Shown here piece after piece: positions 6,241-25,663 of a DNA stretch of 64,000 nucleotides (positions are counted from its first letter, which is position 1; every line of letters starts with the position of its first letter). The DNA comes from Bacteroidales bacterium (lineage in GTDB: Bacteria > Bacteroidota > Bacteroidia > Bacteroidales > WRLA01): contig OY781463.1 in assembly GCA_963676725.1 (NCBI GenBank), positions 4,332,640-4,396,639 on the forward strand. The letters run 5' to 3'. A model generated the notes under the pieces. That model did no database searches and had not been told where the DNA came from. It worked only from the letters and a program-made list of their open reading frames with translations. The translations under genes were made by a program, and so were the position numbers.

Positions 6241-6399
6241 ATGAACACAGATCAATTTAAACTTGATAAAGAACAAGCAAAAAAGAGACCTACGATTGAT
6301 AGGGTCTTAACCATAATATTTATTGGAGAACAAATTCTACTTATGCTCTACATTATTTTTAAAAAGGGGAATGATATTTTAGAGTTTTTCTTTGGCTAA
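6241..6399 (+). CDS. Possible small membrane protein (52 aa), below the ORF-track cutoff
   Basis: The ATG..TAA ORF reads MNTDQFKLDKEQAKKRPTIDRVLTIIFIGEQILLMLYIIFKKGNDILEFFFG and has one hydrophobic helix. It is preceded by a TAnnTTTG box and followed by a strong hairpin. I have no homology evidence. Confidence 0.3.
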   Translation: MNTDQFKLDKEQAKKRPTIDRVLTIIFIGEQILLMLYIIFKKGNDILEFFFG

Positions 6400-6406
6400 A
6401 AAAACC

Positions 6407-6431
6407 AAACCCTCCGGGGGGTGGAGGGTTT
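6407..6431. terminator. Intrinsic-terminator-like hairpin (AAACCCTCC / GGAGGGTTT)
   Basis: A perfect 9-bp GC-rich stem has a 7-nt loop. The A-run on the + side becomes TTTGGTTTTTTT after the hairpin on the - strand. It therefore fits best as the terminator of minus-strand transcription leaving the NRPS operon, and may also stop the small + ORF. Confidence 0.5.
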
Positions 6432-6719
6432 AATAGTATGGAAAACCTATGAAATAATAATAAAAGAAGTATTAATATAAGGGGTTGTATTTTGGTTTAT
6501 TGAATAAACCTGATTTAAGAGCCAATTGCTAAAAGAACGTTTTACTATTAATACCCTTTCGTTTAGGCAATATTCACAAATCATGCCTTTCTATAAATGC
6601 CTATAAATCATATTATTGCCATTTTTACATTCCCAAGAAAATGTCCAACTTTCATAAAGTTTCTATATTTTGGAATGCTTGTGGTTTTTGAAAAAGCCGG
6701 GTGAATATGTCGCAGAACT

Positions 6720-7547
6720 CTAATAAACAGTTATTTTAGCGCTTGTTTTACTAAATAAAGCCCTGATATTCCTCGGCAGCATCTTCAATAAAAAATAAAT
6801 ATGCTGAAAAAAACCGGGGAAACTATAAACTTTGCCATAATTATCAAGTGTCTTAAATTTGGAATCCGCTTGATATATTCGCTCTACAGCAATCACCATC
6901 ATATCTTCAGAAGCTCTCAATTGCCTGTCATTTAATGTTTTTAAAGTATCCGACAAAAATACAGGGACTTGCTTTTCACAGATTGGAATGCCACAATCCA
7001 CACCGGCTCCAATGCACTGAACGGTAATACCTGCAAATTTCTCCCCAAAATACAACTCCCAATAACCCGGGGGCTGCCCTCTGTACTTACGCATATCTCC
7101 ATAATGGAACGATAGAATTCCTCGGGGAAAAAGATCAATTAGGGTTTTTCGTACAATTTTATGATATCCAAAAAGGATCGCCAAATCGGCATTTAGACTT
7201 TGAATAAAACAAAGTGCTTCTGGCGTATACAATTTTTCAAAGTGAGTGATCGGCAAGCCTTTCTTTTCTCCAAGCTCCAATCTTATATTATATAAGGCAG
7301 CCGCGTCCCTATTTTTTTGAAAACAGTTTTTTACCTTCCTCCAAAAAAGCCCGAAGGCCATAATCATCATATATCCACCCCTTTTTTTTCGAAAGCTCGT
7401 CTTTATCATTTCTTTTAAGGGCTTTTTTTGTCGGGGGTTAATAATTACCCCCACTATTTCATATCGGGGATTGTCCCAAATTGGACTAAAAACCTCATAG
7501 TTATATTTTCCAAAAACAGGATGTTCAGTAATAAACAGAATTTTCAT
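6720..7547 (-). CDS. Formyltransferase-fold protein (Fmt/PurN N-terminal domain-like), last gene of the NRPS operon
   Basis: The block LNADLAILFGYHKIVRKTLIDLFPRGILSFHYGDMRKYRGQPPGYWELYFGEKFAGITVQCIGAGVDCGIPI aligns by eye to the Fmt core (..INVHGSLLPRWRGAAPIQ..GVTIMQMDVGLDTGDML). The His and Asp are kept, and the Asn position reads Ser. It overlaps the upstream gene by 4 nt. Confidence 0.55.
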   Translation of the reverse strand: MKILFITEHPVFGKYNYEVFSPIWDNPRYEIVGVIINPRQKKPLKEMIKTSFRKKRGGYMMIMAFGLFWRKVKNCFQKNRDAAALYNIRLELGEKKGLPITHFEKLYTPEALCFIQSLNADLAILFGYHKIVRKTLIDLFPRGILSFHYGDMRKYRGQPPGYWELYFGEKFAGITVQCIGAGVDCGIPICEKQVPVFLSDTLKTLNDRQLRASEDMMVIAVERIYQADSKFKTLDNYGKVYSFPGFFQHIYFLLKMLPRNIRALFSKTSAKITVY

Positions 7548-8365
7548 AAACCATTCTTTTGGATAAATTGATTAATTTTTTCGCCAAACTCTTTTCTTGC
7601 AGTAAGATTCGTATGCCCCGCATTTTTAATGAAATATAGCTCATCATTCTCTCCTAAATACTCTTTGATCCGGCTAATTTCTCCTTTGTCTATACTATTA
7701 TCCAACTCTCCATGAAGAAAAAGAACGGGACATTTTGCCTCTTCTACATATCTATAGACAGGTATATCGAAACGACGCCAACCAAAAGGAACCCAGGCAA
7801 ATTTTCGTCCAAGCAAGTCATCAAAACTAAAATAACCACTTACGATAACCAAAGCACCAACAGGATGTTGCGAAGCGATCCAGGCGGCTTGACCTGCTCC
7901 AAAACTGATCGAATAGCATATAATTTTATCAGACGGCCATACATTATTCACGTATTGATATATCGATTCCGCATCATTTTTAAAGTCTTCAAAAGAGTTA
8001 TAGCTTCCTCTGCTTTTCCCGTTTGCACGATGATCGATCACATAAATATCCTTAGCTGCCCGATAAAATGGATTGTCTTCAAAACGTATATTTTTCAACA
8101 TAGCACCGGACGATCGAAAATAGATCACAGCGCCATTGCTCTCAGGATGAGAAAAATGTAACCCCTTGAGTACGGTTTCACTATCGGGCTTAATTGTGAT
8201 TTCTTCGAATGGAATATCAAAACTATATTCAAAATCATCAGCAATCGGCCTGTGGTACATAATTAATTTTTCTTCAAAAGAATAAAACAGCACCGAAGCT
8301 ATAATATAAATTACAGCAGCTGCACTCAAAATCAGGAGCACTATTTTAAGGTTTCTATTTCTCAT
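7544..8365 (-). CDS. Membrane-anchored alpha/beta-fold hydrolase
   Basis: There is an N-terminal TM helix (LKIVLLILSAAAVIYIIASVLF). A nucleophile-elbow-like SISFGAG is present, followed by LHGELD and GHTN, giving the Ser/Asp/His order of the alpha/beta hydrolase fold. It overlaps the PPTase gene by 11 nt. Confidence 0.6.
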   Translation of the reverse strand: MRNRNLKIVLLILSAAAVIYIIASVLFYSFEEKLIMYHRPIADDFEYSFDIPFEEITIKPDSETVLKGLHFSHPESNGAVIYFRSSGAMLKNIRFEDNPFYRAAKDIYVIDHRANGKSRGSYNSFEDFKNDAESIYQYVNNVWPSDKIICYSISFGAGQAAWIASQHPVGALVIVSGYFSFDDLLGRKFAWVPFGWRRFDIPVYRYVEEAKCPVLFLHGELDNSIDKGEISRIKEYLGENDELYFIKNAGHTNLTARKEFGEKINQFIQKNGL

Positions 8366-9128
8366 TATTTAGGAGCAAGTTTACAAAATCGTTTAAACCT
8401 GCAACAAAAAGAATATTCGGCTCTATCTTGTCCGATTTTTGACAATAAGAAAGGGCATAGTCCTCCATATCAATTGTTTGTATAGAAAAACACTCCTCTT
8501 TTCTATCGAACAAAAGAGGATCTTCCATGCCAATTTTGCGTCGGCCATGAAGCAAATTTAAACTGTTCAAATCTGTACTAATACCGATTCCTGTTGCTTT
8601 CAGGAAAGCCTCTTTTCTTGTCCAGATGCAAAAAAAACGTTCTGTAAGTGCGTCCTCACTATCGTTTACCCAGTTTTCTTCTTCCGGGTGAAAATAGTGT
8701 TTACTTATATTTTTAAGGCTTCGTTTCTTTTTCATCTGTTCTACATCCACTCCGCATTCTTGATTAGAAATAAAAAAAGCGACCCGTTGTCCTGAATGGG
8801 AATAATTAAACTGTATTTGAGGATAATCTGGCAAAAAAGGCTTCCCTTTTGCAGTAGTAGCAATATTTATATCTAAAGCATTTAATTTCAATATTTTAGA
8901 AAGCATAAGCCGTAAAACGGCATGAGCAGTTAAATGCCTTTTTTGATCTGCTTCAAATTTATAGCGTTCCATTCGCTCAATTTCCTCCTTGCGAAGAAAA
9001 GCCTTAAGGTTTGGCGGAGCCTCTCCCTCAATGTTCAGACATAAAAGAATATTTTTGGCGTTTAAAAAGCCTGCGCCACTTAAATCCATTTTAACAACTT
9101 GCCCCACAGAAACCTGAACTAGTGCCAT
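8355..9128 (-). CDS. Sfp-type 4'-phosphopantetheinyl transferase
   Basis: Sfp-family motifs are present: FNYSHSGQ, CGVDVE and WTRKEAFLKATG. The gene starts 5 nt after the NRPS stop. Confidence 0.85.
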   Translation of the reverse strand: MALVQVSVGQVVKMDLSGAGFLNAKNILLCLNIEGEAPPNLKAFLRKEEIERMERYKFEADQKRHLTAHAVLRLMLSKILKLNALDINIATTAKGKPFLPDYPQIQFNYSHSGQRVAFFISNQECGVDVEQMKKKRSLKNISKHYFHPEEENWVNDSEDALTERFFCIWTRKEAFLKATGIGISTDLNSLNLLHGRRKIGMEDPLLFDRKEECFSIQTIDMEDYALSYCQKSDKIEPNILFVAGLNDFVNLLLNNEK

Positions 9129-9133
9129 TTGTT

Positions 9134-12100
9134 TTATTTCTTCAATTCGTTGTCAATGCATGATTGCAGTATTCGAGCGAAATCATAATCGTTTGGTGGT
9201 GCAAAGATAGCAGAATGCTCCCCTGGTATATCAAAGATTTTCACGCCTTTTTGTGCATATTTATCCCATGAATATGTTTTAAAGTCTTCAATATAGAATG
9301 TTTTTCGCTTTGCTTTAAACAGGAATATTTTAATTGGGCAGGGACGCAACACATAATTATCTCCGGCCCTGTTATTTGCTTCATGCACACTTAGCACATA
9401 ATCCTGTAATTTTTCTTTATCACCATCAATAAAAGCTTTCTTGTATTTTCTGTTCGATTTAATATTAGCAATCATTCTATGGACAGATTTTATTTTCCAC
9501 CCAATTACCTGCTTCTTATCGGGATCGCGGATTAAGAGCCAAAATGCAAAAGCGGCCTGATTTACCCGAATTTTAAGTCTTCTGAGTTTTTTTCTCCATG
9601 GATTCAAATAATTATCTGAAGTATAGGCAACGGTATCGAACAAACCCGTAAAGGCAACTTTTTCATGATTCTTCAGTAATTGGCAACTCATTTCATAAGC
9701 AATAATACCTCCCAGCGAATAACCGGCCAATAAATATGGTCCTTCAGCTTGAACGGTTTTAATTTCACTGATATAATGAGCTGCAATTTCTTCCATCGTT
9801 TCCAGTGGCTTTGTTTTCCCATCCAAGCCTTTTGCTTGCAAACCATAAACGGGTTGTTCTGGATCAAGATGTGTTGATAATGATTTATACAACAGCAAGT
9901 TAAGCCCGGCGCCATGCACTACAAACAAAGGTGTTTTATTGCCTTTGGGTTTAATTGCAACCAAACTTCTCCAGGTCTGCTCTTCCTTACAACTCAAGTG
10001 TTTTGATAGTTTTTCAATACTCGAATCAGAGAACAAAACTGCCAATGGTAACCTCTGCCCGAAGGTTTCTTCAATTTTATTCATCATCTGAACTGCCATC
10101 AGGCTATGCCCACCAATGGTGAAGAAATCGTCCTCAATACTTAATTGGACATGTGGCAATAATGCCTGCCAAATATCCAATAATTTTCGTTGCAATTTTG
10201 TTTGTGGCAGCACAATTTCCCTGTCCGAAACAAATAGGTCTGCAGACTGCTCCGGTTTTGGAAGCCGTTTTCTGTCAATCTTCCCGTTGGGTGTCAATGG
10301 GATTTCATCAACTATAGAAAAGCTTGCCGGCAGCATATAATCAGGAAGCTGCTGCATAAGATCTTTTCGTAGTTTTTTGATGTCTGTTTTGGTGTTTTTC
10401 TCTTTTAAATATGCTGCAATATACTTGTTTCCCGGAACATCTTCCCTTACAATTACAACACATTGCTCCACAAAAGTCGACTTAAGAATACAGGCCTCAA
10501 TTTCATCCAGCTCTATTCTAAACCCCCTAATTTTAACCTGATTATCCATTCTGTTCAGGAATTCAAGGTTTCCATTAGCATGCATTTTAACCAAATCTCC
10601 GGTTTTATAAACCATTGCTCCATCCTCATGGGTAAAAGGATCCGGTAAAAATACAGAGCGACTAAGTTCTTTATTATTAAAATATCCCTTTCCAACCCCG
10701 AGTCCGCCAATAAGCAATTCTCCTGCTGTTTCTATTGGCTGAAGGCTCATGCATTCATTAACAACATAAACCTGAGTATTATCAATTGGGTATCCGATAG
10801 ATTCATTAGAACCTTCCTTTAGGAGATTGTTTACCTCAACAGTTGTTGACCAGATCGTAGTTTCAGTCGGGCCGTACATATTCCATAGGCTTTGGCATTT
10901 CCCACATAATTTATATGCAAGATCCGAGGACAAAGCTTCTCCTCCTGCCAAGGCTTTTAGGTCTTGCTTCCCTTCCCAACCACTCAATATCAGCATTTGC
11001 CAACTTACCGGAGTTGCCTGCATCATTGTTATATTCTCTTTATCAATGAGCATTGCTATTTGATCCGGATCCAGCATTTGATCTGCACCGGCAAGAACCA
11101 GTGTTGCTCCGGACATCAGCGGCAAATAGATTTCCAATCCGGCAATATCAAAACTAATAGTTGTTAGCCCAAGCATTTTATCCTGCTCCTGAATGCCGGG
11201 CTTTTTTTGCATTGAATACAAAAAATTAATCAGGTTTTTATGGGAGATAACAACACCTTTTGGATTTCCTGTAGATCCCGATGTATAAATAATATATGCT
11301 ATTGCTTTGGCATTTGGCTTTGGTAAAACAGTGCTTTTTTCTGCCTCAAGAAGCAGTTCATTAATATCAACATGTTTCGTGTTTTCTCCCAGCAATGTTG
11401 CCGCATCATCCTTATGGCAAATCAGAAAACCGGCATTCGAATCATTCAGAATATATCGAATTCGATCATTTGGATAAACAGGGTCAAGCGGAATATAAGC
11501 ACCTCCCGCCTTCATCACAGCAAGAAGGCTAAAAATTAAATCTTCATTTCGGTCAAGGAAAATTGCAGCAAGATCACCCGGTTTAAAGCCTTTATTTATA
11601 AGATTTCGGGCAATTAATGAGCTTCGGGCATCAAGCTCTGCATAAGAAATCCTCTGACCGTTTTGCGTAATAAGGGCAATCTTATCGGGCTGAGCCATTT
11701 TTGCCAGATCAAACGCATTTAAAAAATGAGCATTGTCGGCAAGAAAAGTATTGGTATTGTTGATATTATGAAATAACCAAGATTTCTCTTTGTCTGTTAG
11801 CAAGTTAAAGCTCCCCAAAGCTGTCCCCGGATTTTTTAGCACTTCCTGTATGAGTTGCACATAATGATCCGCAAAAGCCCTGATAAAACTATGATCAAAT
11901 AGATCTGTATTATAATTAAAATTCAGGCATAGTCCATTATTTTGCTCATATACAACGAGGCTTAAATCAAAAATACTCGACTTCACGGACCAATGTACAT
12001 AGGTGCATTCAGCACCCTCAAATTTGAAGGAATCGGAATGCGCATTTAGATAGTTAAAAATACATTGAAAAACAGGAGTGTAGCTAAGATCACGCCTGAG

Positions 12101-15100
12101 TTTTAGGCGATCAACAATGCGCTCAAATGCTGTATCCTGATGCTCAAAGACCTGAAGTAATCCGTCAGAAAAATCAGCGAGATAATCTGTGAAAGCTTTT
12201 TGAGGATCAATCTGCGAACGAACCGGTAAATTATTGATTAATGTACCAAATAGCGCTTCTGTTTGCGCAAAATTCCGGTTTGCCAATGGGGTTCCGGTAA
12301 CGAGATCAAGCGCTCCGGTATACCTGTGCAAAAGAATATTGAAGACTGAATAAAGGCACATATTCAGACTCCGGTTTTGTTCCTGACAAAAAACTTTCAA
12401 ATCACCAAACACTTCGTTATCAATATGTTTGCAGATTTCTTCACCACGAAATGTTTGCCGTGCAGGCCTTTTGTTTTGTATGGGAAGGCTGGTCTGCTCC
12501 GGGGCTCCTTGAAGATATTCTGCCCAGAAATCCAGCTTTGCCTCTACTTCAGCACTATTTATGTATTGGTTATGCCATGAAATATAATCGGTATAGGATA
12601 TTGCTTGAGAATTTAAAACAATCGAACTGCCTGCCTTTATGTGTGCGTAGGCTTCGTTTATTTCCCGAATAAAAACGCCAACAGACCAATTATCAGCAAT
12701 CAAATGGTGAAAATTCAAAAGAAGCCTATATTCTTGCGCTCCATATTTGATGATTGAAATTCTAAAAAGCGGGGGTTTTTCGAAATCGAAGCGGTGATCA
12801 AAAAATTTCGCTTCATAATCAATCAGTTCCTTTTGAGGATTTGGTTTTGTGGTAAGATCAAAATATTCCGGATTAAATGTCTTAAGGTCATGTATTTTCA
12901 GTTTTGGAAAACCTTTTTGCGCAATGATTGAAGCACGAAGCATTTGATGTTTCATCATCATAAACTGCACACTTTTTGCAAAAAGTACGGTGCTAAATTC
13001 ACCCTGAATATTATAAGAAATTGGGATATTATATGCCGTACCCGGATCCTCCAATTGATATAAAAACCATATCCTTTTTTGCGAAGCAGATAGTTCAGAC
13101 AATTCATTATCGCCCAAATGTTTTATGATAATTTGGCTTGTCTCATCCGCTTTTTGTTGTTGAACAAGAGTAACAAGTTGTTTCAGGCTGGGATTTTCAA
13201 GAAATGCTTTAAGGGATATTTTTTTTGATGTCTTGCTTCGTATCCTCGACAATAATTGAGTTGCCAGCAAACTATGACCGCCATAATCAAAAAAGTTATC
13301 GTTCAAAAAAGCCTGTTCAAGCTTTAAGGCTTGGCACCACAATTGACTGAGCTCTATTTCATCTTTTGTTTTTGGGGGCTCTTCTGTTTTCGATAAAGGG
13401 ATGCGCTTGCCTTTGGGGCGAGGCAGGGCCTTTTTGTCCACTTTTTTATTGCTTGTTCTTGGGAAAGCCTCCATATAAATAATAAATGAAGGCATCATAT
13501 ACTGAGGCAGCCTCTTTTCGAGGAATAATCGCAACTCCCTTTCATCCAATGGTTTATTACTTACATAATAGGCCGCAAGAACAAGTGTTTTTCCATGATC
13601 ATGATAAGGGACAACAGCCACTTCACTAATGGATTCATGTTCGCTCAACTTTTGCTCAATTTCTTCCGGCTCAATCCTAAACCCATTAATTTTTAATTGA
13701 TTATCGACCCGACCTACAAATTCTAAGCGTTTATTCAAATTCCAATATGCCAGATCTCCGGTCTTATAGTAGCGTTCACCATCAATAAAAACAAACTTTT
13801 GTTGCGTAAGCTCCTGTCGACCAATATAAGCATCCGCTAAGCCTAAGCCTCCGATAAGCAGCTCTCCCTTTGCTCCCGCAGGAAGCAGTCTTCCATATTT
13901 ATCGCAAATTCTTGCCGTTGCATTGCATATTGGGCCTCCAATGGGCATTTTGTCGGGCGTGTCGGCTTTTAGCACTTCATAAGTAGCAACAACAGTAGTT
14001 TCTGTAGGGCCATAAGTATTATATAATAGAGGATATTCAGGGTACATTTTTCTCCATGTCCTGATGCTTCCCGGCAAAGCAGCTTCCCCACCAATAATAA
14101 CTTCGCGGACATGATCTGGCAAACTCAACTTCTCACTATGCAATACATCTGTAAGATAATGCCAATATGCTGTTGGTAAGTCTAACTGAGTGATTCCAAA
14201 CTCTTTTACTTTTTCGATAAAAGCCTGAACAGAATCAAGCCAGGAATCATCACGAATAACTAGTTCAGCAGCTGATGCAAGTGTGGGATAAATTTCTTCG
14301 ATACAGGTGTCAAAATGAATGCTGGCAAATTGAAGCATCTTATCCTGATGTGTTGTTTTGAAGGCTTGACATGAATGCTGCACAAAATTATTTAAGGCCT
14401 TTCTGCTAATTTCTACGCCTTTTGGAGTTCCTGTTGTTCCACTGGTATAAATCGCATAGGCCTTCGTTGCCGGAATAAAATCACACAGCAGATCCTCATC
14501 AACAACCTTCTGTATTTTCGGTGGCGCAATTATTTTTAATCCGCTTAATATCTCTCTTTTAGAGAACATTGGGTCGGCAATTACCCTATCGATTTGTGCA
14601 TCCTTCAAGATAAAACTGAGGCGCTCCTCAGGCAAAGACGGATCAAGAACAACAAATGCATTAGCTGAAGCCAAAACTGCCAATTGACTAATAATAAGCT
14701 CAATACCTCTAGGAAGAAGTATGCCAATATATTGGTTTTCTGTTCGGCCATTTTCCAATAACAACTGCTTGAAACAACACACGGAAGCAGATAATTGCCT
14801 ATATGACAGACTTGTATTCTGATAACGTAGAGCCGTTTTATTGGGATAATTTATATAAGAATATTCAAAGCCATTAAAAAACCCTCCATTTTTCGCGAAA
14901 TGATGCTCATTTGTCCCACAATCTTCCAAGAGCTTTCGTTCTTGCGGATTAATAAGCAAAAAACTCTGTAATTGCTTTTGAGGATTCTGGATTGCTTGAT
15001 CAAGAAAAAACATCAGGTTTTGATGCAGGTTCTCTATGGTTTTTCGGCAGAAGACATCCGTATTATATTCTATTTCTGCAATTAATCCTGTATTGGTTTC

Positions 15101-18055
15101 AAAAACATTATAGGTAATATCAAGTTTTGAGCCTTGATATGCCGTAGGGGAAAAGTGGGTTTTGCATGCATCAAGTTTTAGTATTTCAAGATCCATACTT
15201 TGGTAAATGAACATCAACTGATAAATTGGATTATACGCGCCGGTTCGCTCCTTCTGTATTTCATTTGCGATAAGCTCATACGGATATTCCTGGTTTTCAG
15301 AAGCTATACTTGCAATATCATTTTGTCTTTTCAAAAAATCTAAAAAACTCAACTCGTGTACAATATCCATTGGTAAAAGCACAACTTGAGTCAAAAAACC
15401 TGCAATATTTCTTGTTTCGGCCTGTCTGCGGTTAGCCATCATCGTGCCTATAAGAAATTGCTCCTGACTACACCAGCACGAAACACAATAAGAAAAGGCG
15501 GATAAAAACAGATTAAACGGGCTAGTTTTAAGAATTTTACTGACTTCCAAAATACGTTCTCCAAAACTCTTTTCAATCGCAAAACTTAAGGTTTCTCCAC
15601 TCATGCTAAGGTTTTTAGGCCTTGGATAATCCAGAGGAAATTCCAGATATTGTGGATAATCTTTCAATTTTTGACACCAATAATCCCTTTGGCTATTCCA
15701 TACACCGCTTTCTACGCAATCTATCTGCCAATTGGTATAGGCTCTATAGGAAAAAACGGCCTGATGTTCCGGCAAAGGCAAATCATAAACCATGGCATTA
15801 TAAACGGACGACAGTTCCTGTATAAGCAATGAAATGGATGATCCATCACTAATAATATGATGAATGAGCAAGAAAAAAGTGTATTGATTTTCATGGGATT
15901 TAAGCAAATAAATCCTGAAAAGGGGAGCTTTACGTAGGTCAAAAGGCTTATTTGTCTCCGTTTTTATAAATGCCGGGATTGCTTCAGCCTTTTCAGAAAA
16001 ATCAATCACTTGAAATGGGAAACTACTGGATTTTGTTTCTTTTTGCCAAATCTCTCCATCAGATTCAACAAAATAAGACCTAAGGCTTTGATGCCTTCGC
16101 ATTAGATGCTGAATGCTCAAATTAAACTTTTCGGTATTGAGTGAGCCATCAATATGATAAACCACTGGAATATTATAAGCCGGGGAATTACTATCCATCT
16201 GGTAGAACAGCCATGGTCTTTGCTGGTTAAAAGACAAAGGAACAAGGCCGGAAGGTTCTAATAATTTTGGCATTTTCGACTTATGCAGAGGCATACGATC
16301 AATAAATGCACTAAGTTGTTCCAAACTTTCTGCAGACAGAAACTCAATAAAACTAATGCGTTTAAACAGTTGTTCTTCAATATCACTAATAATTTTTGCT
16401 GCAATCAGCGAATGCCCTCCTATTTCAATGAAATGATCATCTAAACCTGGTGTTTCATCAAGGTTTAGTTCATTTTTCCAAAATGCTGCTATAACTTTTT
16501 CCGTTGATGTTTTCGGCAGGCGTTTAAAATTTCTTAGCGGATTGATCCCTGAAATATTTTTAATTTTCTCTCGGTTCACCTTGCCGTTTGCATTTAAAGG
16601 CACATCATCAATAAACAAGAAACGGGCAGGAACCATATAAGCAGGAAGTTGCTCTCTACATTTGGCCCGAAGTGTGCATGCCAGGTTTTGAATATTTGCC
16701 CCTGGGCTTTCTTTGATTAAAGCGGATATACTTTTGCCGGCCCCTTCCCCTTCGAGCCGAATAAATGCGTTATGAACGCCCACGACCTGATTCAAACAAC
16801 TCTCTATTTCCCCTGTTTCTATCCTTAGTCCCCGAATTTTAAATTGGTCATCCATGCGGCCATGAAACTCCAAATTACCGTCCGGCATAATACAGCCAAG
16901 GTCACCGCTTCGATACATTCTTTCATTTGGGAGAAATGGGTCTGCAACAAATTTTTTCTCTGTTTCTTCCGGTAAATAGAGATATCCTTCACCCAGTCCT
17001 TCCCCAGCAATACATATTTCCCCTATTTTCCCGTCGGGGACTTTTTCGAGTTTATCATCAAGTATATAAATGCGTGTCTTGGCAACAGCTTTCCCTATTG
17101 GGATATTATCTACTTGTCCCTCAAGCAGATAAGCTGTAGCATATACAGTGCACTCTGCCGGCCCGTATACATTCAGCATTTGATAGTCCTGATTCTTAAA
17201 CTTTTGAAGTTTATCTCCACCTGTATAAAGCATAGTGAGGGATGTGCTTCCCTTTATTTCAACAAATTGCTCAAAAAGCTGCGTAGGGAGGAAGGCAATA
17301 CGTATTCCATTTTGGACAAAATAGTCATATATACGCACTACAGATAAGCGGATATTTTCCGAAATCATATGTAATTCAGCGCCCACAGGAAAAGACGAGA
17401 AGAGTTCGCCTATGGTGGCGTCGAATCCATAACCAGCATATTTTGACATTGGAATACCGGGCCCGGCACCGATTCTGTGAATCATATCCATCATGCGTTC
17501 ATATAATGCTTTATGACTTACCATCACGCCTTTTGGCTTTCCTGTGCTCCCACTGGTAAAAATCACATAGGCAATATCTGATGGTTTCGGCCGCCCCTCC
17601 TCAGGCAAAGACGTATCCTGAGCGTGTGTTAGATCATCCAAAGTAACAATAGATCCGGTGAACCAGGTCAGTTTTGTGCTAAAATCACTTGTTGTGATAA
17701 TCACTTTTGCCCGGCTGTGCTCAATAATATAGCGAATACGAGCTTCCGGATATTGATAGTCAACAGGCAGAAATACGCCCCCAATTTTGAGCAAAGCCAA
17801 AGGCCCGGCAACTTGCGCCAAATGAGGCTCACAAATAACTGCTCCAATATCTGATTTTTTGAAACCACTATCAAGAATGCGCAGGGCAAGTGCATTGCTT
17901 AATGTGTTCAGTTCGCATATGCTGATGCTTTTATTTTCCCAAACAACAGCTTTGTTATTTGGGTGCTTCCTCAATGTTCTTTGAAATACATCGAGAATAG
18001 TCTCTCCAACGAAACGATCCATCTTTACTATAGACATTAACTTATAATCCAACAA
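9134..18055 (-). CDS. Trimodular non-ribosomal peptide synthetase, A-T-C-A-T-C-A-T-TE (2973 aa)
   Basis: Three adenylation cores are present (FTSGSTGKPKG, YTSGTTGTPKG, YTSGSTGNPKG). Three carrier GGHS motifs have their Ser at aa 549, 1595 and 2651. Two condensation His motifs occur (HHIISDG at aa 732, HHLIADN at aa 1783). The terminal thioesterase has GYSLGG with Ser at aa 2780. The ORF opens with TTG at 18055, and in-frame ATGs at 18037 and 18022 are alternative starts. Confidence 0.95.
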   Translation of the reverse strand: MLDYKLMSIVKMDRFVGETILDVFQRTLRKHPNNKAVVWENKSISICELNTLSNALALRILDSGFKKSDIGAVICEPHLAQVAGPLALLKIGGVFLPVDYQYPEARIRYIIEHSRAKVIITTSDFSTKLTWFTGSIVTLDDLTHAQDTSLPEEGRPKPSDIAYVIFTSGSTGKPKGVMVSHKALYERMMDMIHRIGAGPGIPMSKYAGYGFDATIGELFSSFPVGAELHMISENIRLSVVRIYDYFVQNGIRIAFLPTQLFEQFVEIKGSTSLTMLYTGGDKLQKFKNQDYQMLNVYGPAECTVYATAYLLEGQVDNIPIGKAVAKTRIYILDDKLEKVPDGKIGEICIAGEGLGEGYLYLPEETEKKFVADPFLPNERMYRSGDLGCIMPDGNLEFHGRMDDQFKIRGLRIETGEIESCLNQVVGVHNAFIRLEGEGAGKSISALIKESPGANIQNLACTLRAKCREQLPAYMVPARFLFIDDVPLNANGKVNREKIKNISGINPLRNFKRLPKTSTEKVIAAFWKNELNLDETPGLDDHFIEIGGHSLIAAKIISDIEEQLFKRISFIEFLSAESLEQLSAFIDRMPLHKSKMPKLLEPSGLVPLSFNQQRPWLFYQMDSNSPAYNIPVVYHIDGSLNTEKFNLSIQHLMRRHQSLRSYFVESDGEIWQKETKSSSFPFQVIDFSEKAEAIPAFIKTETNKPFDLRKAPLFRIYLLKSHENQYTFFLLIHHIISDGSSISLLIQELSSVYNAMVYDLPLPEHQAVFSYRAYTNWQIDCVESGVWNSQRDYWCQKLKDYPQYLEFPLDYPRPKNLSMSGETLSFAIEKSFGERILEVSKILKTSPFNLFLSAFSYCVSCWCSQEQFLIGTMMANRRQAETRNIAGFLTQVVLLPMDIVHELSFLDFLKRQNDIASIASENQEYPYELIANEIQKERTGAYNPIYQLMFIYQSMDLEILKLDACKTHFSPTAYQGSKLDITYNVFETNTGLIAEIEYNTDVFCRKTIENLHQNLMFFLDQAIQNPQKQLQSFLLINPQERKLLEDCGTNEHHFAKNGGFFNGFEYSYINYPNKTALRYQNTSLSYRQLSASVCCFKQLLLENGRTENQYIGILLPRGIELIISQLAVLASANAFVVLDPSLPEERLSFILKDAQIDRVIADPMFSKREILSGLKIIAPPKIQKVVDEDLLCDFIPATKAYAIYTSGTTGTPKGVEISRKALNNFVQHSCQAFKTTHQDKMLQFASIHFDTCIEEIYPTLASAAELVIRDDSWLDSVQAFIEKVKEFGITQLDLPTAYWHYLTDVLHSEKLSLPDHVREVIIGGEAALPGSIRTWRKMYPEYPLLYNTYGPTETTVVATYEVLKADTPDKMPIGGPICNATARICDKYGRLLPAGAKGELLIGGLGLADAYIGRQELTQQKFVFIDGERYYKTGDLAYWNLNKRLEFVGRVDNQLKINGFRIEPEEIEQKLSEHESISEVAVVPYHDHGKTLVLAAYYVSNKPLDERELRLFLEKRLPQYMMPSFIIYMEAFPRTSNKKVDKKALPRPKGKRIPLSKTEEPPKTKDEIELSQLWCQALKLEQAFLNDNFFDYGGHSLLATQLLSRIRSKTSKKISLKAFLENPSLKQLVTLVQQQKADETSQIIIKHLGDNELSELSASQKRIWFLYQLEDPGTAYNIPISYNIQGEFSTVLFAKSVQFMMMKHQMLRASIIAQKGFPKLKIHDLKTFNPEYFDLTTKPNPQKELIDYEAKFFDHRFDFEKPPLFRISIIKYGAQEYRLLLNFHHLIADNWSVGVFIREINEAYAHIKAGSSIVLNSQAISYTDYISWHNQYINSAEVEAKLDFWAEYLQGAPEQTSLPIQNKRPARQTFRGEEICKHIDNEVFGDLKVFCQEQNRSLNMCLYSVFNILLHRYTGALDLVTGTPLANRNFAQTEALFGTLINNLPVRSQIDPQKAFTDYLADFSDGLLQVFEHQDTAFERIVDRLKLRRDLSYTPVFQCIFNYLNAHSDSFKFEGAECTYVHWSVKSSIFDLSLVVYEQNNGLCLNFNYNTDLFDHSFIRAFADHYVQLIQEVLKNPGTALGSFNLLTDKEKSWLFHNINNTNTFLADNAHFLNAFDLAKMAQPDKIALITQNGQRISYAELDARSSLIARNLINKGFKPGDLAAIFLDRNEDLIFSLLAVMKAGGAYIPLDPVYPNDRIRYILNDSNAGFLICHKDDAATLLGENTKHVDINELLLEAEKSTVLPKPNAKAIAYIIYTSGSTGNPKGVVISHKNLINFLYSMQKKPGIQEQDKMLGLTTISFDIAGLEIYLPLMSGATLVLAGADQMLDPDQIAMLIDKENITMMQATPVSWQMLILSGWEGKQDLKALAGGEALSSDLAYKLCGKCQSLWNMYGPTETTIWSTTVEVNNLLKEGSNESIGYPIDNTQVYVVNECMSLQPIETAGELLIGGLGVGKGYFNNKELSRSVFLPDPFTHEDGAMVYKTGDLVKMHANGNLEFLNRMDNQVKIRGFRIELDEIEACILKSTFVEQCVVIVREDVPGNKYIAAYLKEKNTKTDIKKLRKDLMQQLPDYMLPASFSIVDEIPLTPNGKIDRKRLPKPEQSADLFVSDREIVLPQTKLQRKLLDIWQALLPHVQLSIEDDFFTIGGHSLMAVQMMNKIEETFGQRLPLAVLFSDSSIEKLSKHLSCKEEQTWRSLVAIKPKGNKTPLFVVHGAGLNLLLYKSLSTHLDPEQPVYGLQAKGLDGKTKPLETMEEIAAHYISEIKTVQAEGPYLLAGYSLGGIIAYEMSCQLLKNHEKVAFTGLFDTVAYTSDNYLNPWRKKLRRLKIRVNQAAFAFWLLIRDPDKKQVIGWKIKSVHRMIANIKSNRKYKKAFIDGDKEKLQDYVLSVHEANNRAGDNYVLRPCPIKIFLFKAKRKTFYIEDFKTYSWDKYAQKGVKIFDIPGEHSAIFAPPNDYDFARILQSCIDNELKK
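9137..9958 (-). other. NRPS terminal thioesterase domain
   Basis: PLFVVHGAGLN, GYSLGG (Ser codon 9716..9718) and a C-terminal IPGEHSAIF His motif are present. A long basic lid-like insertion lies between them (WRKKLRRLKIRVNQ...KSNRKYKK). Confidence 0.8.
10001..10213 (-). other. NRPS carrier (T/PCP) domain 3
   Basis: FFTIGGHSLMAVQM, with the Ser codon at 10103..10105. Confidence 0.85.
10256..11743 (-). other. NRPS adenylation domain A3, glycine-type specificity code (approximate bounds)
   Basis: Approximately aa 2105-2600. Pocket residues read from FDIAGL / MMQATP / ALAGGE / NMYGPTETTIW give D I L Q L G M I W (K). This is the classical Gly code family DILQLG(L/M)(I/V)WK. Confidence 0.8.
11786..13108 (-). 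other. NRPS condensation domain C2 (approximate bounds)
   Basis: It starts near LSASQKRIWFLYQ. The active-site motif reads HHLIADNWS, so the usual Gly of HHxxxDG is Asn. The His-His codons are at 12704..12709. Confidence 0.8.
13166..13372 (-). other. NRPS carrier (T/PCP) domain 2
   Basis: FFDYGGHSLLATQL, with the Ser codon at 13271..13273. Confidence 0.85.
13421..14908 (-). other. NRPS adenylation domain A2 (approximate bounds)
   Basis: Approximately aa 1050-1545. Pocket residues read from FDTCIE / QLDLPT / VIIGGE / NTYGPTETTVV give D T E D I G T V V (K). Confidence 0.8.
14951..16243 (-). other. NRPS condensation domain C1 (approximate bounds)
   Basis: It starts near LVPLSFNQQRPWLFYQ and has a canonical HHIISDG active-site motif encoded at 15842..15862. 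Confidence 0.8.
16286..16492 (-). other. NRPS carrier (T/PCP) domain 1
   Basis: FIEIGGHSLIAAKI, with the phosphopantetheine Ser codon at 16409..16411. Confidence 0.85.
16511..17998 (-). other. NRPS adenylation domain A1 (approximate bounds)
   Basis: Approximately aa 20-515. Pocket residues were read against the GrsA numbering from FDATIG / AFLPT / LYTGGD / NVYGPAECTVY. They give D A G F Y G V V Y (K). Confidence 0.8.
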
Positions 18056-18279
18056 GACGACATTTGTCGCTAATAAACTGAATTACACATTTTTAACACG
18101 TAATTTTTAAAAACCTTGACCTCTTTTCCCTTATAAGGACGCCAAAATACTAAATAATTACACATTAGTGGCTCAGTGGTCAATGTTTTTTTTGAAATTT
18201 ATTAATGAACATGCGAAACATTTGAAATACCATAGTGTTTCCCCATCAATTAAAAACCTTTCACTAAGCAGGATTTTTA

Positions 18280-18287
18280 TAATTTTG
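18280..18287 (+). promoter_or_regulatory. Bacteroidetes-type -7 box (TAATTTTG)
   Basis: An exact TAnnTTTG match lies 55 nt upstream of the ATG at 18342. It sits inside the longer ORF-track reading frame 18168.., which argues for the shorter gene model. Confidence 0.35.
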
Positions 18288-18341
18288 ATCAATGCAAAAT
18301 GCCTCATCAAAAAAAGAGGTGGTTCCTCTAAGCGAAACATA

Positions 18342-20124: not shown

Positions 20125-20916
20125 ATGAAAAAAATCTATGGTTTGCTATTAAGAAAAGGAGCATTATTGCTTCTCCTTGCGGCTTTAATGGCCTCTTGTG
20201 TTCCTCAAAAACGTATCCGTTACCTGCAGCAAGTCAGTGAAACTGATTCAACCCTTATTTATGATTATGCCGCTCAGGTTGATTATAAAGTGAAATCGGG
20301 AGATAATTTATATATAAAAGTCTCCAGTCTGGACGAAAAAACATATGATTTTTTCAATACAGCAAAAAGTTCAAATAATAGTGGAAACTATTATAATGAA
20401 GCAGGTATTTACCTAAATTCGTATTCTGTAAGCGATTCCGGAAATATTGATTTTCCTTTTATTGGAAAAATATATGTCCGCGGCATGAATACGGAACAAA
20501 TTACCGCCAAACTGCAAAATATCATTGATGAGTACCTGATTGAAACAACCGTTATTGTGAAATTGGTAAACTTCAGGATTACTTTTATCGGCGAAATAAA
20601 GCAACCCGGGCAACTTCAAATTTATCAGGATAAAATCAATATTTTTGAAGCCATTGCCAAAGCCGGAGACCTGACCGATTTTGCCAATAGAAATAATGTA
20701 AAAATCATTAGAAAAGAAAGCGGGCAAGCGGTAATCCACGAAGTTGACCTCACAAAACGGGACATTCTTGCCTCCGATCTTTACTATATGAAACCCAATG
20801 ACATCGTATATGTAGAGCCTTTGAGGGGCAAGCAGTTTACATTTGCTAATTTCCCTTATGCTGTAATATTCTCTCTTATTAGCACAACAATACTGTTGCT
20901 GAATTATTTCAACTAA
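20125..20916 (+). CDS. Polysaccharide export outer-membrane protein (Wza/BexD family)
   Basis: A lipoprotein-type signal is present (LLLAALMASCVPQ). A Poly_export-like block (YKVKSGDNLYIKV ... GKIYVRGMNTEQITAKLQ) is followed by an SLBB-like region. The gene sits directly upstream of a Wzc-type gene. Confidence 0.8.
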   Translation: MKKIYGLLLRKGALLLLLAALMASCVPQKRIRYLQQVSETDSTLIYDYAAQVDYKVKSGDNLYIKVSSLDEKTYDFFNTAKSSNNSGNYYNEAGIYLNSYSVSDSGNIDFPFIGKIYVRGMNTEQITAKLQNIIDEYLIETTVIVKLVNFRITFIGEIKQPGQLQIYQDKINIFEAIAKAGDLTDFANRNNVKIIRKESGQAVIHEVDLTKRDILASDLYYMKPNDIVYVEPLRGKQFTFANFPYAVIFSLISTTILLLNYFN

Positions 20917-20963
20917 GCAGCGCTAAGACAAATAAATCAGACACTAAAAAATATTCATAAACT

Positions 20964-23465
20964 GTGAACGACAATCAAAATAACCATCAAAGGCCTTACG
21001 ATCAGGCGGAAGAAGAATCCATTGATTTCAGGCAATTGTTTTTTAAGTTTTATCGTTTTTGGTATTTCTTTGCAATTACAATTTTTATTGCCCTTGTTAT
21101 CGCTTTTCTCTTTAACAAATATACGAAACCAATCTATGAGGTTTCTACAACTGTATTGATTAAAGAAAACAACCGTGTAGGTGGTGGTGATGCACAGGCA
21201 CTTCTAGGTCTTGGCTTAGGGAACTCGATGCAAAATTTAAATAATGAAATTGGCATCTTAAATTCCTATACCCTGACACACAGGGCTGTAAAAGCACTTG
21301 GTTTGGATGTTTCATACTATGGCGAGAAAAATTTCATCACTTCAGAGATGTATGATGAATCACCATATACTGTTGTTTTTGACACAAACCATCCTCAACC
21401 CGTAAATCAAAAATTTCATATTACCATTATTAATGGGCAGAGTTATCACCTCGAAGCAGAAGGGGAAAATATCAAACTATACGACTTCCTTACGAATGAA
21501 ATTCTTGAGCATGACGGAAAAGATGTTACTGCGGAGAAAATTTCACTCAATAATGATTATCGATTCGACCAGATCATTGAATCAGACGATTATCGCTTTC
21601 GCATTATCCTGAACAATAATTACGAAGCAGAAACGCACAACAGCAGAAAAATGCATTTCCAGTTTAATATGCTGGATGATATGGTGAAGATGATGCGTGG
21701 TTTTGATATTGAACCTATCAACAAAGATGCTTCCATTGTTCAAATTAAACTAAAAGGAAATAACGTTAAAAAATCAGTTGATTTCCTAAACGAACTTACA
21801 AAGGAATACCTAAATCGGCAGTTGGAACACAAAAACCAAATCGCCACAAAAACCATTGAGTTTATAGATACAGAGATTGTTGGCATTCAGGACTCGCTGA
21901 CATCTGCAGAACAAAAACTGGAAAGCTTCCGTGAGCAAAATAAAATTATGGAGCTAAGCTTTGAAGCAAATCAGGTTTTTACATATATGAACCAGTTGGA
22001 CCAACAAAAAGCAGAGCTTACTGTTAAATCGAAATATTATAAGTTTATTGAGGACTATGTCAGTCAAAATAGTGATATAGGTCAAATACTTGTTCCTTCC
22101 GCAATGGGCATCGAAGACCCTCTGCTGGGTCAACTTATTGCAGAATTGGTGAAATTAAACGATGAGCGCTCTACCTTGATGATCAATTCAAAAAAGAAAA
22201 ACCCTGCTGTGGTTATGGTTGATCAAAAAATTGAAAGTGCTAAACGCAATTTGGTCGAAAATATCAGGAATATTGTAAACGGCTCTAAAATTGCCATTGA
22301 TGATATCGACTCACGCATTAGTGAATTGAATGCACGAATGATGTCCTTGCCTGCGAGCCAAAGACAACTGCTCACTTATAAGCGCGAATTTGAACTCAGC
22401 AATAAGCTGTTTACTTTCCTAACACAAAAACGTGCTGAAGCGCAAATTACAAAAGCATCCAACCTGCCGGATAACGAAATTATTGATAAAGCAATGGAAG
22501 TCGGTCAGGCCCCTGTTTATCCCAAAAAGAGCCTGAACTATATGATCGCCCTTATTCTTGGCGTGATCCTTCCTGCTGTTTATATTTATCTAAAGGATTT
22601 CTTCAACGACAAGATTAATGAGCGACGCGATGTAGAGAATGCTACAAACATTCCAATTATTGGTCATATCATTCACAGTAGCCGTGAAAGCAAAGTTGTT
22701 GTGGCCGATTCGCCAAAATCATCCATTGCTGAAAGCTTCCGCTCTGTGCGAACAAACCTGCAATATATGGCCAAAGGCAAGGAAAAACAGGTTATCCTGA
22801 TTACTTCAGATATTGTAAGTGCAGGTAAAACATTTACATCCATCAACTTAGCTTCTATTTTTGCTATGTATGGCAAAAAGACGCTCCTTATGGGTTATGA
22901 CCTTAGGAAACCTAAAATTTATCAGGATTTTGGTTTGACCAATACCGAAGGGATTAGTTCCTACCTGATTAATAAAAGCAAATTCGAGGACATTATTCAG
23001 AAGTCGCCCATTGACAATCTCGATATTATTATGGCAGGCCCGGTTCCTCCAAACCCTGCAGAGCTTATTGCTTCGGCTAAAACAGAAGAACTAATGGCTC
23101 GCCTTAAAGATATTTACGACTTTATTATCCTTGACACACCACCTGTTGGGCTTGTAACAGATGCGTTCCTGCTCATGAAGTATACCGATAGCAATGTCTT
23201 TGTTGTGCGCCAAGGTTATACAAATAAAAAAGTATTTGCAGGAGTTATTCAGGATGTGGAAAAACGAGATATCCCCAATGCCAGTATTCTGATTAATGAC
23301 GTAAAACTAAGCAAGAATGCTTATGGTTATGGATACGGATACGGCTATGGTTATGGATATGGATATGGATACGGTTATGGGTATGGATACGGTTATGGAT
23401 ATTATTCCGATGATAAAAATGCCGCTCGAGAATCTGTACTAAAGCGTATTTTCAGAAAATCATAA
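20964..23465 (+). CDS. Polysaccharide co-polymerase / BY-type tyrosine autokinase (Wzc/GumC-like)
   Basis: GTG start. The N-terminal Wzz-like region has two TM helices flanking a long coiled-coil periplasmic part. The C-terminal kinase has Walker A-like SDIVSAGKT, Walker A' YDLRKP and Walker B IILDTPP. The protein ends in a Tyr-rich tail. Confidence 0.85.
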   Translation: MNDNQNNHQRPYDQAEEESIDFRQLFFKFYRFWYFFAITIFIALVIAFLFNKYTKPIYEVSTTVLIKENNRVGGGDAQALLGLGLGNSMQNLNNEIGILNSYTLTHRAVKALGLDVSYYGEKNFITSEMYDESPYTVVFDTNHPQPVNQKFHITIINGQSYHLEAEGENIKLYDFLTNEILEHDGKDVTAEKISLNNDYRFDQIIESDDYRFRIILNNNYEAETHNSRKMHFQFNMLDDMVKMMRGFDIEPINKDASIVQIKLKGNNVKKSVDFLNELTKEYLNRQLEHKNQIATKTIEFIDTEIVGIQDSLTSAEQKLESFREQNKIMELSFEANQVFTYMNQLDQQKAELTVKSKYYKFIEDYVSQNSDIGQILVPSAMGIEDPLLGQLIAELVKLNDERSTLMINSKKKNPAVVMVDQKIESAKRNLVENIRNIVNGSKIAIDDIDSRISELNARMMSLPASQRQLLTYKREFELSNKLFTFLTQKRAEAQITKASNLPDNEIIDKAMEVGQAPVYPKKSLNYMIALILGVILPAVYIYLKDFFNDKINERRDVENATNIPIIGHIIHSSRESKVVVADSPKSSIAESFRSVRTNLQYMAKGKEKQVILITSDIVSAGKTFTSINLASIFAMYGKKTLLMGYDLRKPKIYQDFGLTNTEGISSYLINKSKFEDIIQKSPIDNLDIIMAGPVPPNPAELIASAKTEELMARLKDIYDFIILDTPPVGLVTDAFLLMKYTDSNVFVVRQGYTNKKVFAGVIQDVEKRDIPNASILINDVKLSKNAYGYGYGYGYGYGYGYGYGYGYGYGYGYYSDDKNAARESVLKRIFRKS
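23322..23405 (+). repeat. Coding hexanucleotide repeat: 13 x (TAY-GGN) + TAT-TAT encoding (YG)13-YY
   Basis: Codon-by-codon reading from 23322 gives tat ggt tat gga tac gga tac ggc ... tat gga tat tat. Synonymous codons are mixed, so the repeat is imperfect at the DNA level. Confidence 0.95.
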
Positions 23466-23486
23466 CAAAAGGACCAAGCAAATGAG

Positions 23487-23536
23487 CCAACGAATAAAAA
23501 CTCCATCTGTGAGCTTTTATTCGTTGGTTTTGTTTT
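23487..23536 (+). terminator. Strong rho-independent terminator after the wzc-like gene
   Basis: A perfect 13-bp stem pairs CCAACGAATAAAA (23487..23499) with TTTTATTCGTTGG (23515..23527). It is followed by TTTTGTTTT. Confidence 0.8.
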
Positions 23537-23586
23537 AGCTAAGCTTATTTTGTAAGTTTACCGTCCTTTGAAGAATAAGGTGCATT

Positions 23587-24102
23587 ATGTTTAAAGAATC
23601 ATTCGTTCGGTTTATTCTCTTATTACTGGTTCAGGTTTTGATTCTGAACAACATACATCTTTATCATTTTGTAACCCCCCTTATTTATATTTATTTCATT
23701 ATAAAGCTGCCATTTGATATTCCTGGTTGGTTGTTGCTACTGCTTGCTTTTTTGATTGGGTTTCTTATGGACATTTTCGTGGCAACACCGGGTTTACATG
23801 CTTCTGCTACTGTATTTGCTGCATTTATAAGGCCTCTTATTATTCGTTTGATGCGATCAGGAAGGGATTATGAACCAGGCTTAGTTCCCGGAATCAGGGA
23901 TATGGGTCCTCGCTGGTTTATTGGCTATTCAATAATAATTGTTGCTGTTCAAGTTGCTGCAATTACATTCCTTGAAAACTTAGGCAGCAGTGATTATACA
24001 CAGATTTTTTACCGCTGGTTTTATAGTACATTGGTTTCATTTACAATGATCTTAATCTTGGATTATCTTTTTCTCACTAAAAAGAAAAAAGGATACATTT
24101 AG
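23587..24102 (+). CDS. mreD: MreD-like rod-shape membrane protein
   Basis: The 171-aa polytopic membrane protein has an N-terminal half (LLLLVQVLILNNIHLYHFVTPLIYIYFIIKLP...FLIGFLMDIFVATPGLHASATVFAAFIRP) that matches the pattern I recall for Bacteroidetes MreD. The call rests on memory of the family, not on a search. Confidence 0.55.
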   Translation: MFKESFVRFILLLLVQVLILNNIHLYHFVTPLIYIYFIIKLPFDIPGWLLLLLAFLIGFLMDIFVATPGLHASATVFAAFIRPLIIRLMRSGRDYEPGLVPGIRDMGPRWFIGYSIIIVAVQVAAITFLENLGSSDYTQIFYRWFYSTLVSFTMILILDYLFLTKKKKGYI

Positions 24103-24238
24103 AGCAAACCGGCAATATATGTTGGAGGTTCTTCATAATTATAAGCTTATTCAGAGGTAATGTAAATCGTCGAGATCTGCAATTAGAATGAATGCTTTTT
24201 TTAACTTCGCGCTCTGATTTTGATGAAATATACGACAC

Positions 24239-25660: not shown

Positions 25661-25663
25661 CGC

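Follow-up and report, generated by a model that had tools for sequence, protein, structure and literature searches.

Formylation has two kinds of precedent among non-ribosomal peptide synthetases (NRPSs): in-cis F domains act on the N-terminus, as in linear gramicidin, anabaenopeptilide and kolossin A, and freestanding formyltransferases act in trans on internal Orn-derived side chains (PMC8949500). An operon that pairs an NRPS with a formyltransferase-fold protein is present in a Bacteroidales bacterium, on a 64,000-nucleotide stretch of contig OY781463.1 (assembly GCA_963676725.1, positions 4,332,640 to 4,396,639; hereafter the window). Its four minus-strand genes run in one direction over 11.3 kb (6720-18055; Table 1) and encode a three-module NRPS, an Sfp-type 4'-phosphopantetheinyl transferase (PPTase), an N-terminally membrane-anchored alpha/beta hydrolase and the formyltransferase-fold protein. 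With a probability of roughly 55%, these genes form a functional operon, restricted to its lineage, in which the PPTase primes the NRPS, a small non-ribosomal peptide is released by the terminal thioesterase (TE), and the formyltransferase-fold protein tailors it. The original prediction, made from the DNA sequence, had placed the same four open reading frames (ORFs) at exactly these positions, joined in the above order by a 5-nt gap, an 11-nt overlap and a 4-nt overlap.

The nearest curated NRPS models are AusA, MxcG and EntF. They share with the window the A-T-C-A-T-C-A-T-TE logic of adenylation (A), thiolation carrier (T) and condensation (C) domains, all core motifs and an Sfp-type PPTase encoded beside the synthetase. 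The window NRPS nonetheless scores far below each of the NCBIfam equivalog cut-offs (AusA 1621 vs 2500, MxcG 1168 vs 2300, EntF 999 vs 2400) and has no characterized product. The lack of a match to a curated equivalog supports the expectation that its product is probably undescribed. The closest solved A domains are those of LgrA, TycA and GrsA, with the first A domain of LgrA no closer to A1 of the window than those of TycA and GrsA. The F-A-T initiation module of LgrA, like the F domains of anabaenopeptilide and kolossin A, resembles the window in its formyltransferase-fold catalyst, amino-acid start and lack of a starter C domain, and by this analogy N-terminal formylation of a T-bound residue is plausible. 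Unlike that of LgrA, the window catalyst is encoded by a gene of its own, last in the operon, rather than fused to A1, and it carries neither the catalytic Asn nor the SLLP loop. Hydroxamate clusters, including those for pyoverdine (with PvdF), ornibactin and malleobactin, also combine a separate downstream formyltransferase gene with a predicted basic residue of the Orn/Lys type; CchA of coelichelin is a further freestanding formyltransferase of this kind. The window differs from these clusters in that its annotated ORFs include no N-hydroxylase, receptor or transporter, in that A2 is Lys-like, and in that its formyltransferase-fold protein comes from a different, rare family.

In the proposed pathway, the Sfp-type PPTase would turn the three T domains into their holo form, after which A1 would load a hydrophobic L-amino acid that is probably aliphatic, A2 a basic one (Lys or possibly Orn) and A3 Gly. 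Two LCL-type C domains would assemble X-Lys/Orn-Gly-S-T3, and a Gly-adapted type-I TE would free the chain. The formyltransferase-fold protein would be the conserved tailoring partner, most likely N-acylating (formylating) a free amine of the peptide. Its target could be either the Lys/Orn side chain, as in systems of the pyoverdine/ornibactin type, or the N-terminal alpha-amine, as with the F domain of LgrA. The membrane-anchored hydrolase would be a recent, lineage-specific addition, with a catalytic domain that is probably extracytoplasmic and may process the exported product. Of this scheme, the anatomy of genes and domains, the intact motifs, the Gly code and the pattern of conservation are directly observed; the nature of residues 1 and 2, formyl transfer and its site, the mode of release and the part played by the hydrolase are inferred.

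The domain order and intact motifs of the synthetase speak for this reading. In the NRPS, Pfam identifies three AMP-binding/AMP-binding_C, two Condensation, three PP-binding and one Thioesterase domain and nothing else: methyltransferase and reductase domains are missing, and so is any third Condensation-type match able to be an epimerization or starter C domain. The N-terminus leads directly into A1 (from ~aa 12), with no starter C or F domain fused to it. Motif scanning recovers the core motifs A3, A5, A7, A8 and A10 in every adenylation domain, GGHSL in each carrier domain (aa 546, 1592 and 2648), HHxxxD in both C domains (HHIISD at aa 732, HHLIAD at aa 1783), and GYSLGG (aa 2778) and PGEH (aa 2944) in the TE. 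The A core motifs, GGxS carriers, HHxxxD motifs and type-I TE of a type I modular NRPS are thus all in place, and deviations are minor: motif A10 of A2 reads SNKKVDK, with the Lys517 equivalent kept, and the C2 motif is also slightly altered (Table 1). The TE matches PF00975 at 1.4e-22, and its Ser, Asp and His columns are conserved across the alignment of its family. Both C domains are taken to be LCL-like from their N-terminal motifs (for C1, see Table 1); together with GGHSL in all T domains, this suggests an all-L peptide. These domains and motifs bear out the earlier description of an intact, trimodular, TE-terminated NRPS that starts with an amino acid. The domain order was also said to establish a TE-released tripeptide; the order stands, and 'established' overstates it, collinearity being a rule of thumb.

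The substrate predictions are of graded strength. The A domains were aligned to the pocket positions of GrsA-PheA, for which the procedure gives back the reference code DAWTIAAICK. The A3 code is an exact match to a published Gly code, so that Gly as the last residue of the predicted peptide, already proposed from the first reading of the sequence, is well supported. The A2 code agrees with the Lys code DGEDHGTVVK at 8/10 positions, including both acidic pocket residues, and DGEDHGTVTK, one residue away from that Lys code, is an Orn code; residue 2 is accordingly predicted with moderate confidence to be Lys or Orn. A1 matches the published Ile code DGFFLGVVYK at 7/10 positions, a weak hint that residue 1 may be aliphatic. 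The collinear orthologue described below (L012) has the codes DFQGTGTVYK (A1), DAEDIGTVVK (A2) and DILQLGMIWK (A3); A3 is identical in the two synthetases and A2 is common to them as D[T/A]EDIGTVVK, whereas A1 differs. The A1 code of L012 presumably resembles a Val code, DFESTAAVYK, which the literature search did not return. As the A2 code is kept between the orthologues and the A1 code is not, there is a slight lean towards formylation of the side chain; the alpha-amine is equally common to both orthologues, so that either site would fit.

Fold and family support an amine-acylating role for the fourth protein. It matches Formyl_trans_N (Pfam, 2e-16), and its AF2 model has a pLDDT of 82.9 and shows the full fold. 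The best Foldseek matches of the model are ArnA-N, FMT and the hydrolase domain of FDH (ALDH1L1; E ~1e-14), together with the sugar N-formyltransferases WbkC, FdtF and QdtF. Across ArnA-N, the other sugar enzymes and FDH, E-values range from 1e-10 to 1e-14 and TM-scores are ~0.55-0.62. Alignment to FMT, PurN and ArnA places H148 and D184 on the His of 'INVH' and the Asp of 'GLDTG' in FMT, and both residues are invariant across the family. The His and Asp are likewise kept in the sugar N-formyltransferases, and relatives of the window protein occur in glycan clusters; unlike those enzymes and FDH, to which it is 14-20% identical, the window protein has Ser in place of Asn, another folate loop, an extra C-terminal helix and an N-terminal insertion. 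The family is rare, with ~20 homologues at 32-38% identity in a word-indexed search and ~100 representatives at E <= 1e-30 in an exhaustive profile search of 1.84 billion proteins, and it has the invariant signature G-[IV]-L-S-[YF]-H-[HY]-G-D-M-R-K-Y-R-G.

Two subclades can be distinguished within this family by their genomic surroundings. Members of the 'HHGD' subclade are found in glycan clusters in the order Polysacc_deac_1, formyltransferase-fold gene and a 467-aa protein of no Pfam match, and these clusters also hold glycosyltransferases and genes for AMP-binding and carrier proteins. A gene placed immediately behind a polysaccharide deacetylase is what one would expect of an enzyme restoring an acyl group to the amine set free, and by analogy suggests such an activity. 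The four members of the 'HYGD' subclade (window, L012, P0002 and P0003) all lie immediately 3' of a PPTase gene or with a single gene between. In two of these cases, on unrelated metagenome contigs (L002:8171-10774 and L092:2136-4728), the genes for Exo_endo_phos_3, Sfp-type PPTase and the formyltransferase-fold protein form a conserved overlapping triad, with no NRPS or carrier gene nearby.

The PPTase combines AASDHPPT_N and ACPS (Pfam) in the two-half Sfp architecture, with GVDVE at aa 126 and WTRKEAFLK at aa 169. It falls below the NCBIfam bit-score cut-offs of the named subfamilies (HetI 90 vs 370, AusB 80 vs 225, AcpT 60 vs 174, EntD 19 vs 169). The wider context was drawn from relatives gathered with a T-TE alignment query, of which at least 592 exist; 80 loci were fetched from named genomes and searched by tblastn with the window proteins. 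A PPTase gene lies directly 3' of the TE in 38/80 of these loci. This position is therefore a trait of the family. The original prediction had taken the dedicated PPTase as a sign that the host has no second Sfp-type enzyme, a question on which a family trait sheds little light. When the PPTases linked to formyltransferase-fold genes were compared for signs of a clade of their own, just those of L002 and L092 paired up. The hydrolase has a single strongly hydrophobic N-terminal segment (~residues 7-28) preceded by basic residues, followed by SISFG, D and H motifs. Its one homologue shares 24% identity, no informative PDB or NCBIfam relatives were found, and it is a species-level addition that is close to an orphan.

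Conservation of the operon is deep for part of it and shallow for the rest. Exact copies of the proteins are encoded on a 5.19-Mb contig and variants of >=90% identity on contigs of 3.95, 2.62, 1.10 and 0.11 Mb. The order PPTase, hydrolase, formyltransferase-fold gene, 52-aa ORF and biotin carboxylase recurs on nine contigs from several metagenomes at ~99% nucleotide identity. Between strains, 11 substitutions separate the hydrolases, 9 the PPTases and 1 the formyltransferase-fold proteins, numbers for which dN/dS is underpowered. Named relatives of the TE region are all from Bacteroidota, the closest being Draconibacterium, Prolixibacteraceae and Bacteroidales metagenome-assembled genomes (MAGs). 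Among the 80 loci, only L012, from a Draconibacterium MAG, links a formyltransferase-fold gene to the NRPS. Its 2981-aa synthetase aligns with that of the window in a single high-scoring segment over residues 23-2968 at 36.5% identity and is followed by a 257-aa PPTase and then a 260-aa formyltransferase-fold gene. Outside the lineage of the window, just one deeply divergent lineage has thus kept the trio of NRPS, PPTase and formyltransferase-fold genes. The earlier idea of one four-gene unit holds only among the ~99%-identical strains; beyond them the PPTase is found in 38 loci, the formyltransferase-fold gene in L012 and the hydrolase in none. The L012 NRPS is flanked directly upstream by a DDE transposase (L012:413-1987), and an ECF sigma factor follows its formyltransferase-fold gene, which hints that the trio is mobile in that lineage.

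Several observations weigh against a functional operon for a formylated, TE-released peptide. Two of the four sequence features of canonical formyltransferases, the Asn and the SLLP loop, are missing from the fourth protein. The position of the catalytic Asn, two before the His, is Ser146 in the window protein; of 149 top-scoring representatives, 99 have Ser at this position, 12 Gly and 2 Ala (113 in all), and only 5 distant members have Asn. The folate loop HxSLLPxxRG reads HYGDMRKYRG in the window protein, with SLLP replaced by GDMRKY, and the altered loop is invariant in the family. The lack of both features leaves formyl transfer from 10-formyltetrahydrofolate unproven, and formyl transfer by this protein is an uncertain assumption; of the original annotation as a formyltransferase, the fold stands and the activity is in doubt. 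Two of the 'HYGD' relatives sit in the Exo_endo_phos_3 triad with no NRPS nearby, and no hydrolase homologue occurs in the 80 related loci. The literature search returned no published match to the exact A1 or A2 code. No MbtH, transporter or regulator gene lies inside the operon, and the lack of the latter two leaves export and control unexplained. Lastly, the polysaccharide context of the TE family, considered next, suggests that release may not be simple hydrolysis.

It is unlikely, on present evidence, that the peptide is instead a building block put on a cell-surface glycan or glycolipid, with the Gly-specific TE transferring it to an acceptor sugar or lipid, and with the formyltransferase-fold protein, the membrane-anchored hydrolase and the nearby wza-wzc-MBOAT-AlgX genes in the same surface-polymer pathway. 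This possibility arises from the TE family, whose members are 40-52% identical to the window TE and common in Mucilaginibacter. As in the window, a PPTase gene follows downstream (38/80 loci), polysaccharide genes are often nearby, and the A domain before the TE has a Gly-type code in nearly all of the ~74 related loci with a readable A domain. Most of the relatives have a single module, usually as A-T-TE (~885 aa) or C-A-T-TE (~1345 aa), and lie among glycosyltransferases or behind a FAAL-KS-AT-T-aminotransferase, whereas the window and L012 have two more upstream modules and a formyltransferase-fold gene. Recurrent neighbours of the TE loci are two GT2 genes, Acyl_transf_3, Bac_transf, OEP, Wzc-like, Wzy_C, Wzx flippase, GT1 and a hexapeptide acyltransferase, and A(Gly)-T-TE genes are found between glycosyltransferase genes. 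Polysaccharide-assembly genes of the Wzx/Wzy type, counted as GT2, Bac_transf, Wzc-like, Wzy, Wzx and Acyl_transf_3, occur within 10 kb in 53/80 TE-family loci as against 1/80 control loci. These loci are phylogenetically non-independent (39/80 are from Mucilaginibacter, outside which the figure is 18/41), and the query proteins were taken from those same loci. No description of an association between Gly-TE proteins and polysaccharide genes was found in the literature.

The window itself offers evidence on both sides of this question. Its wza and wzc genes begin at a distance of 2 kb from the NRPS, and 22 TE-family loci encode homologues of its Wzc, so that the operon, originally called self-contained, is questionably so given the polysaccharide link of its TE family. 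The 'HHGD' relatives of the fourth protein in glycan clusters with AMP-binding and carrier-protein genes, and the sugar N-formyltransferases ArnA, WbkC, FdtF and QdtF among its closest structures, point the same way. On the other hand, ppa and an unrelated ORF, on other strands, lie between the operon and wza-wzc, and no glycosyltransferase was found in the 64-kb window. Moreover, L012, the only collinear orthologue, has no such polysaccharide genes within 10 kb, and the same is true of several loci from the lineages closest to the window. An extension of this idea to the whole phylum would make Gly-ending NRPS modules, with a dedicated TE and PPTase, an undescribed Bacteroidota-wide system feeding aminoacyl, peptidyl or lipopeptidyl groups into the assembly of exopolysaccharides or glycolipids. 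The (formyl-)tripeptide would then pass via the TE to a surface polymer exported by the adjacent Wza/Wzc, and glycan and NRPS pathways would share, in the Ser-His-Asp family, a novel type of enzyme that acylates amines; this too is doubtful, and improbable to a similar degree.

Two further observations belong with this polysaccharide context. In ~27 loci (e.g. L062 and L072, and L081:468-7031), a 2187-aa FAAL-KS-AT-T-aminotransferase or its equivalent lies directly upstream of C-A(Gly)-T-TE, and PPTase, Bac_transf, OEP, Wzc-like and Wzy genes follow the pair. This combination looks like a route to a beta-amino-fatty-acyl-glycine unit made within an exopolysaccharide locus. The window genes for Wza, Wzc, a 171-aa protein of no assigned function, MBOAT (AlgI/DltB-like) and an AlgX/SGNH-like protein form a compact export and O-acylation set.

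Slightly less probable than the glycan reading is that the operon does not serve one pathway at all. The PPTase and formyltransferase-fold genes would then be an independent two-gene module that is co-transcribed with the NRPS by chance, the formyltransferase-fold protein and the hydrolase would act on unrelated substrates, and an unmodified tripeptide would be released. The PPTase-formyltransferase pairs that follow Exo_endo_phos_3 in L002 and L092 and the proximity of all four 'HYGD' members to PPTase genes favour this, as does the lack of the hydrolase in related NRPS loci. Yet overlapping or near-abutting frames join all four genes, the formyltransferase-fold gene follows NRPS and PPTase in the only collinear orthologue despite 36% identity, and the operon contains no other gene for a plausible substrate. 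A hydroxamate siderophore precursor, in which residue 2 would be N-formyl-N-hydroxy-Orn/Lys, formylated by the freestanding enzyme as in pyoverdine, coelichelin or ornibactin, with the N-hydroxylase encoded elsewhere and the TE possibly oligomerizing, is very improbable. In its favour, known hydroxamate clusters likewise place a freestanding formyltransferase-fold gene behind a small NRPS, and the A2 pocket suits a basic substrate. The annotated ORFs (most, not all, of the 64-kb window) include no N-hydroxylating monooxygenase, TonB-dependent receptor or siderophore transporter, and on this ground the siderophore was discarded as the leading explanation. Moreover, a Lys code is the nearest to that of A2, which is unlike the published codes for modified Orn (hOrn/fhOrn), one hydroxamate per tripeptide would make a poor chelator, and the formyltransferase-fold family is otherwise tied to glycan clusters.

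Table 1. Positions of the operon genes, the NRPS domains and neighbouring features in the window
Feature	Position	Strand	Remarks
NRPS gene	9134..18055	-	A1-T1-C1-A2-T2-C2-A3-T3-TE; 2973 aa from TTG
A1 domain	16556..18022	-	Approx. aa 12-500; code DAGFYGVVYK; variant A5 motif YGPAE
T1 carrier domain (approx.)	16286..16498	-	GGHSL, Ser at aa 549
C1 condensation domain	14936..16243	-	HHIISD; N-terminal motif SFNQQRPW
A2 domain	13421..14878	-	Code DTEDIGTVVK; acidic E239/D278 pocket; Lys/Orn-like
T2 carrier domain	13163..13351	-
C2 condensation domain	11780..13096	-	HHLIADN
A3 domain	10256..11695	-	Code DILQLGMIWK (Gly)
T3 carrier domain (approx.)	9998..10198	-
TE domain	9161..9931	-	GYSLGG, PGEH; Bacteroidota TE family almost always coupled to Gly-activating A domain
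Sfp-type 4'-phosphopantetheinyl transferase	8355..9128	-	257 aa
Alpha/beta hydrolase, N-terminally membrane-anchored	7544..8365	-	273 aa; lineage-specific
Formyltransferase-fold protein	6720..7547	-	275 aa; non-canonical Ser-His-Asp family (S146, H148, D184)
Terminator-like hairpin with T-run	6404..6434	-
wza - wzc - 171-aa ORF - MBOAT - AlgX-like genes	20125..26971	+	Neighbours of the operon, possibly linked to it in function

Gene callers begin the NRPS at M7, and the ATG at 18037 is the likely start, giving 2967 aa as in the public annotation. The hairpin near 6407..6431 noticed in the first reading of the sequence was recovered as a terminator-like structure with a T-run on the minus strand (Table 1) and is the probable end of the operon; as the single such hairpin downstream, it favours the operon reading together with the tight gene junctions. 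It adjoins a 52-aa ORF (6241-6399, plus strand) between the formyltransferase-fold gene and the biotin carboxylase gene, which is called in all strain variants and may be spurious. Genes for biotin carboxylase, biotin carboxyl carrier protein (BCCP) and carboxyltransferase flank this side of the operon, and a 348-aa ORF of no family match, then ppa, the other. The 348-aa ORF (18168-19214, plus strand) is divergent from the NRPS, matches no Pfam or NCBIfam family and lacks homologues in all related loci. Translation probably starts at the Met of codon 59 (~18342), which would leave a ~290-nt untranslated region in front of the NRPS. Rfam has no matches in or around the operon, this ~290-nt region included, and hence reveals no known riboswitch or leader. 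Elsewhere in the window, a 1281-aa ORF (46510-50355, minus strand) of no Pfam family at E <= 0.001 lies among housekeeping genes for pyruvate kinase, LD-carboxypeptidase and MetRS.

The flanking carboxylase genes also bear on the origin of the operon, which had been described as an inserted accessory operon. The order biotin carboxylase, BCCP and carboxyltransferase is kept in 80 loci whose biotin carboxylase is 69-76% identical, and the operon lies upstream in none of them. Marks of insertion are absent: an empty site is not definable, since those 80 loci share no other neighbours, no direct or inverted repeats of >=12 nt were found flanking the operon, and its GC content, GC at third codon positions and codon usage show no deviation from the other genes of the window. 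The operon is lineage-specific and carries no sign of recent acquisition.

The locus is an ordinary, uncharacterized orphan NRPS cluster of a common kind, and its glycan link is interesting and unproven. It is not conceptually surprising, but it comes from an uncultured lineage in a phylum with very few assigned NRPS products: just 12/306 gene-cluster families of Bacteroidota match MIBiG, in keeping with the rarity that had been assumed at the outset (PMC9248904). For natural-product work, the predicted product is small and the compact 11.3-kb operon is easy to express. Its wider value lies in a rare formyltransferase-fold family that lacks the canonical Asn, and in a Gly-coupled TE/NRPS family that occurs systematically in polysaccharide loci. 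Both reach beyond the window, for which they are themselves unproven. If true, the link between Gly-TE proteins and polysaccharide genes would suggest that products of NRPSs decorate or prime the surface glycans of Bacteroidota.

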